The notes beneath the pieces are model-generated. The model searched no databases. It was not told the DNA's origin and saw only the letters and a program-made list of their open reading frames with translations. A program made the translations under genes and the position numbers. From positions 162,644-194,643 of the IMG/VR virus record IMGVR_UViG_3300037851_001030: a stretch of 32,000 bases of DNA. One strand, given 5' to 3'. The stretch is from a virus. Below, one piece after another: positions 18,403 through 21,015 of this stretch; the stretch's first letter is position 1; the number at the start of each line of letters is the position of its first letter.

Positions 18403-21015
18403 CTAGGGAGCCTTGAAGGTGAAGGTACCCTTGAAGAGGAGCGCCGGGGGAGCGCGCAAGGGGCCGGACGACCCGTGGCCATAGACCTCCAGCTCACCGT
18501 CGACGTTGCACGTGGTCCCACCGACCTTGACAGGGCCACCCTTCTGGGTGAGCGACGCGATGGTAGCTTCGGCGTTCGCGTACTCCGGATCCCAGTCGCC
18601 GTGGTCTACTTGCAGTACAAGCTTTCCGGTCGTCTTCGTGTCGGGCACGTCGAAGAGCCCGCCGTACTGTCCCTGAGCCGTCAGCGTCGCAGGGATCGTG
18701 ATCGTGGCCTTACCCTGGGAATCGAGCTTGAACTTGCGGATGTGGGCGAAGCTGTCGTTCTTCGAGAACTCGACGTCGTACCCGGTGACCTCCTCGGACT
18801 CGGCGCGCCGGGTGCTGGCATTCCGCCCCTTCGGATAGTTAGTATCGCCCGGCAGCAACAACATCTTCCTGGATCTATTGTCGATGTGGTGTCGGCCGCC
18901 ACCGAGACGCTCGACAATCGAGATGTCACCGTCGCGTTCGCCTCTGAGGGCGAACGTTATGTCGCTTAGGATGGTGAATGGAATCGGGTCTCCGATTGGC
19001 TTTCCACTGTAGTTCATCCGCCAAGCTAGCTGTTTTGGTTTCGCCCATCGCACGAGGTCGCTCACGCGCGCGGTGACTGGCTGCTCCGGCTCCGGCTCCG
19101 GCGCCTCCTTGGTGGCTAGTCTACGCTTCATGGTTCCGAGGTCCATAGACGGTCTCCTCCTAGCGCTAGCGCTAGCGCTAGCGATTGCGGGCTCGACGGG
19201 TAGCGACTCCGGCGCCCTGGGCACCGGCACGTGCAGCCGCTCCGCGATGTCGACCCAGGTCTCGCGCTCCTTGCGGTACTCGCCGATCTGGGACTCCGAC
19301 GGCGGGTGGGGCACGCCGTTCACGGTGAAGACGCGACGGCCCGTCATCATGTCGTCGAGGTACTTGATCTTGGCCGGCACCACCTTCTTGAGGAGCGCGA
19401 GGTCGGCCTGCGGAAAGTGCTGGACAAAGTCGGCGAACTCCTTGACGTCGGAGTAGCGACCGAGCCCGGTCCACGCGACGTGACCCTTCTCGTCTAGATA
19501 CATGGCGCCCGCCCAGTCGGTGTACGTGCTGGCCTTGGGCTTGTTCCAGACCTCACGGTCCACGATCTTCGGGTTCATGGTCTGGCTCACGAACCGGAAC
19601 CCCTTGCCGGTCTTGAATTCGAGCCAGTATCGGATCTTGGTCCGCAGCCGGAAGCCGTAGGGGTAGTCGTCGACCACGTAGGCGTTCGCAGGCGAGTCGT
19701 GACCATAGAGCGGCTTGACGATGGAGGCACGACGGAGGCCAGCCGATACGCGCTTGAGGCCGTGCGAGTATTCCAGCGTGCCGACACCGCTGCCCGGTAT
19801 CTTCGCGCGTTCCTCCAGCTCCAAGGCACCCATGTCCTCGTCTTGGAACTTCTTAGCGTCCCTCGGATCGTAGCCGTACTTCTTGAGCACGTCTTCGAGT
19901 TCCGCTAGCGGAGCTGCCCCTGCCTCTTCTCCTCGGTCGTGGCGGAGACACGCGTTCTTGGCTGCCTTCAGGTTCTCGAATCCAGCCCCAAGCGTATCGA
20001 CGCGACCGTTATTCGCATAGAACTCGGCGCCGAAGCCGGATGAAATCTTGACGATTGTGTAGTGGCCATCGTGTTTGACGGCCTGGGCGCTCCAGAAGCC
20101 TGGCCGAGTCTGCTTCCACGAGGGGAGATTAGGCAGTGTGAACGAACGACCAGCGAGTCGAGCGCGAAGGGTTGCGAGGTCCATGGATTGGGGCCTCCTC
20201 CCTAAGCCAGCGGCGAACAGCATCTGCTGGCCCTTGATCAGTTGGTCAAGCTCCTCCCAGAGGGCCACCACGATGTGGAGCTGCTTTCGCAGCACCTCTG
20301 GCTTGCCGTACTCCATCGCACTCTTGGTGTCACCGTAGAAGAGTCCGTCCCAGCCAGGGTCCGTGAGCCCGGCCTGGGCCGGGTTGTGACGCACCTGCTT
20401 GAGGATGGTTTCGGCCCGGGCCTTCTCCTTACCCTCCGGCAGAGCGTTGACGGCCTTCTTGGTATCGTCCCAGATAGGCGCGGCATCCTTGACCCAGGCG
20501 TACAGCTTCTTGACCGCCGCGCTGTTCGAGCCCCGACGCGTGGCCTCGAGCAGGTCTGGGTACTTCTTCAGCATCGCGATCATGCGCGCGATCCCGTGCT
20601 CGATGAACTCCGGCGGTTTCACAGCCTTCGGCCTCGGCGCGCGTACCCGGATCGACGGCAGCTTGAGGAGCGCGGCACGGTAGTCGTCCAGCATGTCGCG
20701 CACGGCTCGCGCAGCGCCCACACCTGCGGCACCGGCGGCGTCGAGTCGGTTCGCGTGCTGGCGGGCGATCCCGAGCCAGCGGCGAAGGTCCTCGACGACC
20801 TCCTTGCGCGCCTTCGCCTCCCACACCTTGGCCGCCTCGAGCACGCTATCGAGCACGCCCTTGAGGGCCGCGCGGTCCGGCGTGCGCCCGGGATCGGTCA
20901 GCTTGCCGGCGGCCGTGAGCGACTTCATGAGGCCGTAAACGGCCTGGATCGCGTCGTTCGGAGTTGAGACGGCCGCCGCCTGACGGACGACTCCCCGTAG
21001 GGTTTCGAGGCGCAT
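18403..21015 (-). CDS. 870-aa tri-modular hypothetical protein; each module starts with the leader motif
   Basis: Starts MRLETLRGVVRQAA. The in-frame internal Met278 (ATG 20184, MDLATLRARLAG) is preceded by GGGAGGAGG. Met624 (ATG 19146, MDLGTMKRRLAT) is preceded by AGGAGGAGA. Confidence 0.75.
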   Translation of the reverse strand: MRLETLRGVVRQAAAVSTPNDAIQAVYGLMKSLTAAGKLTDPGRTPDRAALKGVLDSVLEAAKVWEAKARKEVVEDLRRWLGIARQHANRLDAAGAAGVGAARAVRDMLDDYRAALLKLPSIRVRAPRPKAVKPPEFIEHGIARMIAMLKKYPDLLEATRRGSNSAAVKKLYAWVKDAAPIWDDTKKAVNALPEGKEKARAETILKQVRHNPAQAGLTDPGWDGLFYGDTKSAMEYGKPEVLRKQLHIVVALWEELDQLIKGQQMLFAAGLGRRPQSMDLATLRARLAGRSFTLPNLPSWKQTRPGFWSAQAVKHDGHYTIVKISSGFGAEFYANNGRVDTLGAGFENLKAAKNACLRHDRGEEAGAAPLAELEDVLKKYGYDPRDAKKFQDEDMGALELEERAKIPGSGVGTLEYSHGLKRVSAGLRRASIVKPLYGHDSPANAYVVDDYPYGFRLRTKIRYWLEFKTGKGFRFVSQTMNPKIVDREVWNKPKASTYTDWAGAMYLDEKGHVAWTGLGRYSDVKEFADFVQHFPQADLALLKKVVPAKIKYLDDMMTGRRVFTVNGVPHPPSESQIGEYRKERETWVDIAERLHVPVPRAPESLPVEPAIASASASARRRPSMDLGTMKRRLATKEAPEPEPEQPVTARVSDLVRWAKPKQLAWRMNYSGKPIGDPIPFTILSDITFALRGERDGDISIVERLGGGRHHIDNRSRKMLLLPGDTNYPKGRNASTRRAESEEVTGYDVEFSKNDSFAHIRKFKLDSQGKATITIPATLTAQGQYGGLFDVPDTKTTGKLVLQVDHGDWDPEYANAEATIASLTQKGGPVKVGGTTCNVDGELEVYGHGSSGPLRAPPALLFKGTFTFKAP
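19161..19183. repeat. self-complementary hexamer microsatellite (TAGCGC)x3.8 encoding ASASASA, abutting the SD of internal start 19146
   Basis: tagcgctagcgctagcgctagcg is built from alternating NheI-type (GCTAGC) and AGCGCT palindromes. Confidence 0.85.

Follow-up and report, generated by a model that had tools for sequence, protein, structure and literature searches.

The 32,000 nucleotides (nt) analysed here, hereafter the window, are positions 162,644 to 194,643 of the virus record IMGVR_UViG_3300037851_001030 in IMG/VR, and the gene in question is a minus-strand open reading frame (ORF) of 870 open codons at 18403-21015, the product of which begins with a short basic leader peptide of a kind that is also found on other proteins of the same phage. 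Leader-like peptides recur within the ORF at Met278 and Met624, each of these methionines being preceded by a Shine-Dalgarno (SD) sequence, and the two sites are referred to as junctions J1 and J2. The gene is a mosaic of at least five segments (aa 1-269, 270-425, 426-623, 624-730 and 731-870) with strong translation initiation regions at two of the joints, with breakpoints near leaders and with modules that occur both fused and separate. Its source is an uncultivated jumbo phage of ~210 kb: the identical 870-aa protein is encoded on a contig of 210,455 bp, and the flanks provided by the Logan assembly contain an intein-bearing gene for the portal (PHROG E = 9e-50), ~4 kb left of the window, and one for the large terminase, likewise intein-bearing (E = 3e-30), that starts ~5.5 kb right of it. 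The window also encodes a sigma-70 factor, a methyltransferase and tRNAs. The G+C content of third codon positions (GC3) is high in the same single frame along the whole 870-aa ORF, which argues that there is no concealed frame change.

On the coding strand J1 reads GGC TTA GGG AGG AGG CCC CAA TCC ATG GAC CTC and J2 reads GCT AGC GCT AGC GCT AGC GCT AGG AGG AGA CCG TCT ATG GAC CTC, with spacers of 9 and 6 nt between SD and ATG, respectively. An earlier, sequence-only reading of the window had given these positions, sequences and spacings, and on the coding strand they proved exact. It had also proposed that the Arg-Arg residues in front of each internal methionine are translated ribosome-binding sites, and both the codons used and the pairing with the anti-SD sequence agree with this. 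AGG and AGA make up 7% and 3%, respectively, of the arginine codons among the 7,698 codons of the window, and all five arginine codons across J1 and J2 are AGG or AGA. The anti-SD duplex energies at Met278 (-12.1 kcal/mol) and Met624 (-10.2 kcal/mol) rank first and second among the 108 internal in-frame ATGs of 26 window genes; the best genuine gene starts in the window reach -11.6 and -10.7 kcal/mol.

The peptides that follow were ranked separately. A first hidden Markov model (HMM) of the leader had been trained with both internal copies included, so that its E-values were circular, and a model with those copies left out was weak (Met278 4.8 bits, E = 2.4; Met624 outside the best 16); for these reasons a scoring matrix trained on nine genuine N-terminal leaders, both internal copies again left out, was adopted and restricted to internal methionines. 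Met278 (10.9 bits) and Met624 (2.9 bits) ranked first and second of the 106 scored, and the chance that two independent rankings choose the same pair of methionines is ~1 in 5,565. The internal copies look like the MDL/MNL-type leaders of other genes in this phage, and their similarity to the ORF's own N-terminus, MRLETLRGVVRQ, is not significant (p = 0.21). An unguided repeat search likewise recovered the two junctions as a 30-nt direct repeat with 77% identity (19132-19161 and 20170-20199). The codon composition after both internal methionines is start-like: the mean GC3 over codons 2-16 is 0.69 for true starts and 0.85 for the interior of genes, compared with 0.47 after Met278, within the lowest 0.8% of interior windows, and 0.73 after Met624. 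Scans for sigma-70-type promoters and intrinsic terminators found none on the coding strand within the ORF and, over 16500-25000, no excess over shuffled sequence, while Rfam gave no RNA element besides tRNA and no frameshift element.

The layout of the junctions can be compared with that of true gene junctions in this phage group, at which the stop codon overlaps or directly abuts the SD of the next gene. In two related contigs, L090 and L091, such a junction reads C-TAG-GAGGG-TTCC-GTG, i.e. CTAGGAGGGTTCC-GTG; the true junction within the window, at 23001, is CAC-TAG-AGGAGATATC-GTG, i.e. TAGAGGAGATATC-GTG. J1 (T-TAG-GGAGGAGG) and J2 (C-TAG-GAGGAG, with three further TAGs 5' of it from a (CTAGCG)4 tandem) share this layout of a TAG overlapping the SD, then a spacer and an ATG, except that their TAG stands in another reading frame, shifted by +1 at J1 and by -1 at J2. 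Remnants of an intergenic signal are thus present at both fusion joints. The earlier suggestion that the modules became fused by loss of stop codons does not fit, as the TAG persists at both junctions and is bypassed out of frame. Perfect hexamer tandems stand on either side of the Met624 leader, (CTAGCG)4 at 19160-19183, which encodes ASASASA, and (GCTCCG)3.3 at 19083-19102, which encodes PEPEPE.

Comparison with relatives showed where the segments begin and end. The contig L091, a Joint Genome Institute (JGI) contig from another sample, is 76-83% identical to the window in nucleotide sequence and syntenic with it into the next gene and beyond. Module 1 is 76% identical in DNA over 20619-20210, after which L091 runs straight from module 1 into the PLYGH domain described below (GQQMLFAA-SLRSASVS-KPLHGH), with neither a methionine nor an SD nor a leader at the joint; aa 270-425 of the window's protein are missing. 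J1, with its out-of-frame TAG, its SD, its spacer and its ATG, forms precisely the left edge of the missing segment, and the Met278 segment therefore behaves as a cassette with its own ribosome-binding site that entered, or was lost from, a gene in which fusion had already taken place. J2, by contrast, is present and in frame in L091 (GCGCTAGGAGGAGACCGTCTATGGAyCTCGGAACCATGAA, one mismatch in 40 nt), whereas the linker around it differs by substitutions and by a 12-nt indel, 12 nt of the (CTAGCG)4 repeat being missing in L091. Homology between the two ends 19 nt 3' of the Met624 ATG, and a different module of 105 aa then follows. The internal SD-ATG for which conservation in orthologues had been sought is hence kept at Met624; J1 is absent from L091 along with its whole cassette, and there is one informative orthologue per junction.

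Other relatives supply the separate counterparts. Residues 731-870 are 92% identical to aa 44-183 of a stand-alone protein of 183 aa (P0005) on L090, a contig that is 91-94% identical to the window in DNA, and identity over module 3b reaches 94% at the nucleotide level. In L092 two adjacent leader-cassette genes are separate, and their leader DNA is identical at 32 of 33 nt. Orthologues in L090, L091 and L092 of the leader gene at 16990-18072 have 69-91% DNA identity over the body of the gene, with homology that starts only 59-74 nt after the ATG. Module 1 was also found in the protein P0017, at 45% identity over query aa 29-281, where it continues in frame through ...GQQLLFASVSNRLRRS-MQLRKAGR... 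into an unrelated, leader-like module of 85 aa; in every lineage seen (window, L091 and P0017) it is fused downstream, and it was never met as a separate gene. On this comparison the fused state is inherited and not a recent accident or an assembly error. The proposal of three formerly separate cistrons of 277, 346 and 247 aa thus survives in part: some modules are indeed separate in relatives (the PLYGH domain, aa 731-870 in L090 and the L092 cassettes), but the segments number at least five and module 1 never stands alone. Its view of the leader methionines as module boundaries was well founded, both Met278 and Met624 being real boundaries with intact translation initiation regions. In more distant proteins, an internal 'PS-MDRIASTRQF' of P0003 matches the N-terminus of the stand-alone proteins of L008-L012, and the N-terminal MTRRTSRRR leader of P0013 is repeated internally, methionine included (z = 7.6). 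Protein searches found no homologue of module 2a or module 3a, scans of IMG/VR with module 1 and with the neighbouring 360-aa gene found no relatives, a nucleotide search with 16900-23100 against GenBank phages gave no match and a scan of GTDB genomes gave no relative.

Table 1. Features of the 870-aa ORF and positions of leader-bearing genes (window numbering unless a flank is named)
Feature	Position	Strand	Remark
870-aa mosaic multi-module protein, stop TAG 18403-18405	18403-21015	-	Same protein in JGI and Logan assemblies
SD GGAG of the annotated start, 7 nt 5' of the ATG at 21015	21023-21026	-	-6.4 kcal/mol
N-terminal leader MRLETLRGVVRQAA, aa 1-14	20974-21015	-	Helix predicted at aa 2-16
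Module 1, aa 1-269, all-helical, end ...GQQMLFAA	20209-21015	-	45% to P0017; 76% nt to L091
Junction J1, aa 270-277, GLGRRPQS	20185-20208	-	Starts where L091 homology is lost
J1 parts: out-of-frame TAG; SD GGGAGGAGG; spacer CCCCAATCC	20204-20202; 20202-20194; 20193-20185	-
Internal start ATG 20184-20182 (Met278) and leader MDLATLRARLAGRS	20143-20184	-	Helix predicted at aa 280-288
Module 2a, aa 278-425	19741-20184	-	Cassette missing from the orthologous ORF in L091; low-confidence structure model
Met-less leader-like helix ...GLKRVSAGLRRA, aa 415-430, just 5' of PLYGH domain	19726-19773	-	L091 equivalent is SLRSASVS
PLYGH/DYPYG/WNKPKxSTY domain, aa 431-597, ~165 aa	19225-19725	-	AlphaFold2 pLDDT 97.6
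Linker, aa 598-623, J2 at its end	19147-19224	-	SD, spacer and ATG nucleotide-identical in L091
J2 parts: (CTAGCG)4 tandem with four out-of-frame TAGs; SD AGGAGGAGA; spacer CCGTCT	19160-19183; 19161-19153; 19152-19147	-
Internal start ATG 19146-19144 (Met624) and leader MDLGTMKRRLATKE	19105-19146	-	L091 homology ends at 19127
Module 3a, aa 624-730, specific to this phage	18826-19146	-	Different 105-aa module here in L091
Module 3b, aa 731-870, separable C-terminal domain	18406-18825	-	92% to P0005; 94% nt to L090
Leader genes in the window	3093-4121; 4165-5199; 16990-18072; 21038-21820; 22621-23001; 23012-23575; 23572-24432	-
Leader genes in flank L085	6000-6371
Leader genes in flank L086	11871-12152; 17668-18177; 18180-18395

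The leader follows the pattern M-[DNRE]-L-x-x-L-[RA]-x-x-h-R-x-A, is basic and amphipathic, and was found on at least 14 genes of this phage on both strands. Its amino-acid pattern is kept despite the use of different codons and is also seen in L087 (57% GC) and in P0006, and we infer that it acts at the protein level as a shared tag. Two other identities were tried and rejected: a Tat signal peptide, as the twin-Arg consensus is absent, and the N-terminus of an XRE helix-turn-helix protein, of which only a stretch resembling helix 1 is present. One leader gene stands immediately upstream of the large terminase gene. An (E/D)NVGD motif ~30 residues from the N-terminus is common to three others (3093-4121, 4165-5199 and 23012-23575) and suggests that these are true paralogues. 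Between the 870-aa ORF and the next leader gene is a leaderless gene of 94 aa (18077-18361, minus strand), which is missing there in L090 and L091 and in place of which L092 carries a leader gene of 202 aa; it looks like a small moron-like insertion.

Recurrent peptides were also noted in other phages. In L001 (JGI Ga0315284_10010449) nine genes begin MT(R/S)R(K)TSR(K/R)..., followed in most of them by a motif of the RRN[SG] type, and ...RRRTSRR* is the ending of several genes. Another N-terminal family in the same contig begins MSYS, MSYT or MSYN, and in several members the C-terminal tail is hydrophobic and probably spans a membrane. Different jumbo-contig proteins in L006, L007, L015 and L020 share a 25-aa peptide, LRSxxIRLAHxKPELRxxLLPLL, which is located at either terminus or in the interior of the chain and often directly before the PLYGH domain. 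In L004, which encodes P0002 and its neighbours, [RK]-x-(G)-N-P recurs between the modules of multi-module proteins (ARRGNP, KREGNP, ERAGNP, RRPNP and others) and may be a linker or processing motif.

The best defined part of the protein is the PLYGH domain. An exhaustive phmmer search with the whole ORF gave 1,236 representatives of 50%-identity clusters; of the 150 listed, nearly every one aligns with aa 431-597 alone. Among most of these listed representatives the domain is stand-alone, usually with a length of 160-200 aa, and relatives were found in 163 IMG/VR stretches, many of them on contigs of 180-512 kb. In P0002-P0004 and most other listed multi-domain relatives it is C-terminal and ends approximately where the pre-Met624 linker begins, and basic helices analogous to the Met-less helix precede it in P0003, P0008 and L008-L012. 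P0016, P0018 and P0050 have it fused to DUF3560 (including in a protein of 2,379 aa) and to a 2H-SAK phosphoesterase domain, which hints at a place for the family in the conflict or 'polyvalent' protein repertoire. Neither the 870-aa ORF nor the other leader proteins matched anything in Pfam, PHROGs, NCBIfam or PADLOC; PDB sequence searches with the ORF and with a PLYGH profile found nothing, nor did tblastn of the domain against PLSDB plasmids and GenBank phages. A Foldseek search with the AlphaFold2 model of the domain (predicted local distance difference test, pLDDT, 97.6) returned no hit at E <= 0.001 in PDB or BFVD, the best being 0.21 and 0.028 with TM-scores <=0.3. The domain is accordingly described as a large unnamed phage-associated family that possibly has a new fold, going by the model. 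The full-length AlphaFold2 model is confident only for this domain; it places both junctions in low-confidence linkers and predicts short helices at aa 2-16, 280-288 and 419-429.

The reading that we consider probable, taken whole, is that the ORF consists of fused leader cassettes from a hypervariable region, with working internal starts and nested products. Each cassette in this phage group comprises an SD that overlaps the preceding TAG (T-AGGAGG), a spacer of 5-9 nt, a start codon, a basic amphipathic leader of ~12-15 residues and a variable domain, and cassettes are swapped between related phages with several of the breakpoints at or near the leader. Two junctions in the ORF are read through because their TAG is out of frame, so that five segments form one 870-aa protein. 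Ribosomes would in addition initiate at Met278 and Met624 to give products of 593 and 247 aa, each with a free N-terminal leader, beside the 870-aa fusion. We infer that such initiation most likely occurs because of the strength and spacing of the SDs, the retention in L091 of an SD made of rare codons and the start-like codon usage that follows. The leader itself would be a docking or packaging tag that resembles the capsid-targeting sequence (CTS) of phage T4; this is our preferred guess, made by analogy and held with low confidence. Several observations weigh against the scheme. The accessibility of the mRNA at the two internal starts is only mildly start-like (31st and 15th percentiles), and Met624, at 2.9 bits, is only weakly leader-like. 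The breakpoints at aa 426 and ~aa 731 do not fall at a Met-leader, and the nucleotide identity at J2 could stem from recent recombination and not from purifying selection. The junction in P0017 keeps R-R-S-M with the two arginines encoded by CGT CGA and without an SD, and L091 fuses module 1 without any leader; fused proteins can therefore function without internal starts. Leader genes, moreover, are on both strands over >40 kb and are not confined to head genes, and a search by eye after the leaders for a cleavage motif of the T4 or phiKZ type found none that was consistent, with A-x-E-like triplets in some leaders only.

Some of these points would be explained if the gene encoded an ordinary multi-domain protein, with the 870-aa chain as its sole product, the SD-like runs as relics of fusion or merely the Arg-Arg codons of linkers, and the leader-like peptides as inter-domain helices. 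The downstream fusion of module 1 in all three lineages, the absence of an SD in P0017 and of a methionine between module 1 and PLYGH in L091, the Met-less leader-like helix before the PLYGH domain and the many architectures of PLYGH proteins, e.g. with 2H-SAK or DUF3560, would all be expected of such a protein. Against it, the top two SD matches among the 108 internal ATGs fall exactly 6 and 9 nt before leader methionines, these SDs are composed of codons which encode only 3-7% of arginines, L091 has kept one of them without a single nucleotide change and the codon composition after both methionines is start-like. In bacteria a strong SD placed at such a distance from an ATG normally leads to initiation, and there is a tendency to avoid SD-like runs inside genes. 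A single multi-domain product is thus thought unlikely, though it deserves to be taken seriously. The same off-frame TAGs raise the question of an artefact, in that a TAG 1-2 nt out of frame lies directly 5' of both SDs and a single upstream indel in the true sequence would restore in-frame stops and three ordinary genes. The Logan assembly of SRR12687606 is, however, 100% identical over 19134-32000 without a mismatch or gap and covers both junctions, JGI and Logan yield the same 870-aa protein, L091 from a different sample shares J2 in frame, the end of module 1 is read through in both L091 and P0017 and there is no change of GC3 frame near J1 or J2. The frameshift or stop errors at the junctions that had been entertained earlier are thereby rendered unlikely, and an artefact of assembly or sequencing as the whole explanation is barely credible.

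Programmed frameshifting at the tandem AGG codons or the internal SDs could also make use of the TAGs, with some ribosomes terminating and the modules being released separately. Tandem AGG-AGG and SD-like elements are known to stimulate frameshifting in Escherichia coli, and off-frame TAGs do cluster at J1 and J2. The TAGs are nevertheless located upstream of the AGG run or overlap its start, so that a shift at AGG-AGG would miss them; the shift needed differs between J1 (+1) and J2 (-1), and there is no slippery heptamer at the junctions and no Rfam frameshift element. A programmed shift onto the off-frame TAGs is ruled out by this geometry, and frameshifting in any form is a very improbable account of the locus. 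A further alternative is a polyprotein, in which the leaders would be targeting-plus-cleavage signals, the fusion would be loaded into the prohead or another compartment and cut at the leaders by a phage protease, which would make it cost-free to fuse cassettes, and the internal SDs would be incidental. In T4 the internal proteins and Alt bear the CTS, and a short N-terminal peptide common to at least 14 proteins that are otherwise unrelated is a formal parallel to this (PMC5694885); for the polyvalent proteins of phages, packaging and processing have been predicted (PMC5512222). The window lies between the portal and terminase genes (a position that is only suggestive), a 172-aa ClpP/crotonase-like gene adjoins the terminase gene, the J2 leader is set between flexible low-complexity linkers (ASASASA and PEPEPEPE), and the model has both junctions in regions of low confidence that are probably disordered. 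A conserved cleavage motif was not found after the leaders beyond the occasional A-x-E-like triplet, no protease was confidently identified, the leader genes are dispersed on both strands with some beside non-structural genes, and the retention of SDs made of rare codons is left unexplained. Processing of a polyprotein is accordingly judged improbable, and the nested reading, with internal initiation at Met278 and Met624, continues to be preferred.

Other features of the phage were recorded in passing. Inteins with LAGLIDADG endonuclease domains are present in the portal, in the large terminase and in a third large protein (L085 9391-13672, minus strand; L086 13275-16622 and 18415-20255, plus strand). 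There are two tRNA genes on the plus strand of the window, at 16566-16636, the anticodon of which was left unassigned by ARAGORN (tRNA-???; Rfam 45 bits), and at 16820-16895, a tRNA-Val(AAC); L091 has ~310 nt in this region against ~930 nt in the window and may lack both. An ORF of 1,154 aa at 7649-11113 (minus strand) has a very high GC3 of 0.91; Pfam, NCBIfam and PADLOC gave no family for it and PHROGs just a weak hit, and its product may be structural and highly expressed.

The locus by itself offers no new mechanism, as the nesting of genes, their fusion and mosaicism are familiar phenomena. If the internal starts work, one gene would give rise to three nested proteins that each start with the same kind of tag, and this would speak directly for an obligatory N-terminal position of the tag and for the tag as what delimits the functional unit. 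The differences by whole leader-bounded modules among three related contigs amount to cassette exchange caught in the act, and offer a concrete way to study how the many unknown proteins of jumbo phages become diverse. There is also a warning for annotation: what is recorded in such phages as one long 'hypothetical' ORF may consist of several cassettes that have been fused. The more interesting threads are the families of leader tags in jumbo phages and the 165-aa PLYGH family, which is worth defining. A bolder and decidedly speculative extension, which we think more apt to be wrong than right, is that the SD-ATG-leader unit is a portable 'joint' of an uncultivated jumbo phage clade, at once a patch of homology for swapping and a start that gives each module a free targeting tag, irrespective of the frame of the stop codon before it. 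It may then be that tagged proteins (virion-packaged, injected or otherwise localised) are shuffled as single units or as stoichiometric fusions, and other jumbo lineages may have analogous tag families in MTRRTSRRR..RRN and LRSxxIRLAHxKPELRxxLLPLL.

Several known systems share features with the locus. In-frame nested genes with an internal ribosome-binding site include gene 4A/4B of T7, C/Nu3 of lambda and infB and clpB of E. coli, and as in these the interior of an ORF contains an in-frame ATG with an SD at the canonical distance, so that one mRNA would be expected to yield a long protein and C-terminally identical shorter ones. In the classical examples the internal start falls within one evolutionarily coherent gene, whereas here there are two internal starts, each at a cassette boundary defined by recombination and each with a shared leader, and the shorter products are predicted. 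The modular theory of phage evolution and the 'boundary sequences' of lambdoid phages describe mosaic genomes that exchange at gene boundaries or short conserved junctions. The breakpoints at gene starts between close relatives and the short junction sequence common to many cassettes (32/33 nt in the L092 leaders) fit that description, but the conserved junction here encodes a peptide that is kept at the amino-acid level across distant phages, and some of the junctions are read through. At polymorphic toxin loci (Rhs, CdiA, MuF toxins) C-terminal cassettes are replaced at a conserved demarcation motif, which resembles the constant N-terminal module 1 with different C-terminal modules in three lineages and a short motif that marks the swap point; the cassettes here, in contrast, have their own SD and start codon and also occur as independent genes. 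No toxin or immunity family appropriate to such a locus was detected with Pfam, NCBIfam, PHROGs or PADLOC, and downstream of the ORF are the 94-aa ORF and a leader protein.

The polyvalent proteins of phages and conjugative elements are multi-domain and mosaic, with domains that occur together or apart, are found in phages of the portal-terminase type and have the 2H phosphoesterase superfamily listed among their domains (Iyer et al. 2017, PMC5512222). The likeness lies in a variable architecture made of domains that also occur alone, and in the PLYGH relatives fused to 2H (SAK). The ORF was not classed as a polyvalent protein because no hallmark domain of that group (MuF, zincin peptidase, ArdC, methyltransferase-helicase, LPD) was detected in it with Pfam, NCBIfam, PHROGs or PADLOC, and the passages of that paper used here say nothing of SD-ATG-leader units being kept where domains join. 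The T4 CTS is carried by the internal proteins IPI-III and by Alt (PMC5694885, citing Mullaney and Black 1996). Like the CTS, the leader is a portable peptide of ~10-20 residues on otherwise unrelated proteins of one phage with varying cargo; unlike it, the leader has neither sequence similarity to the CTS nor the L/I-x-E cleavage motif and is also found on genes outside the head region and inside an ORF. By analogy with these systems, the locus would function as an in-frame nested gene does, in addition to the classical mosaicism of phages with exchange at the boundaries of genes.

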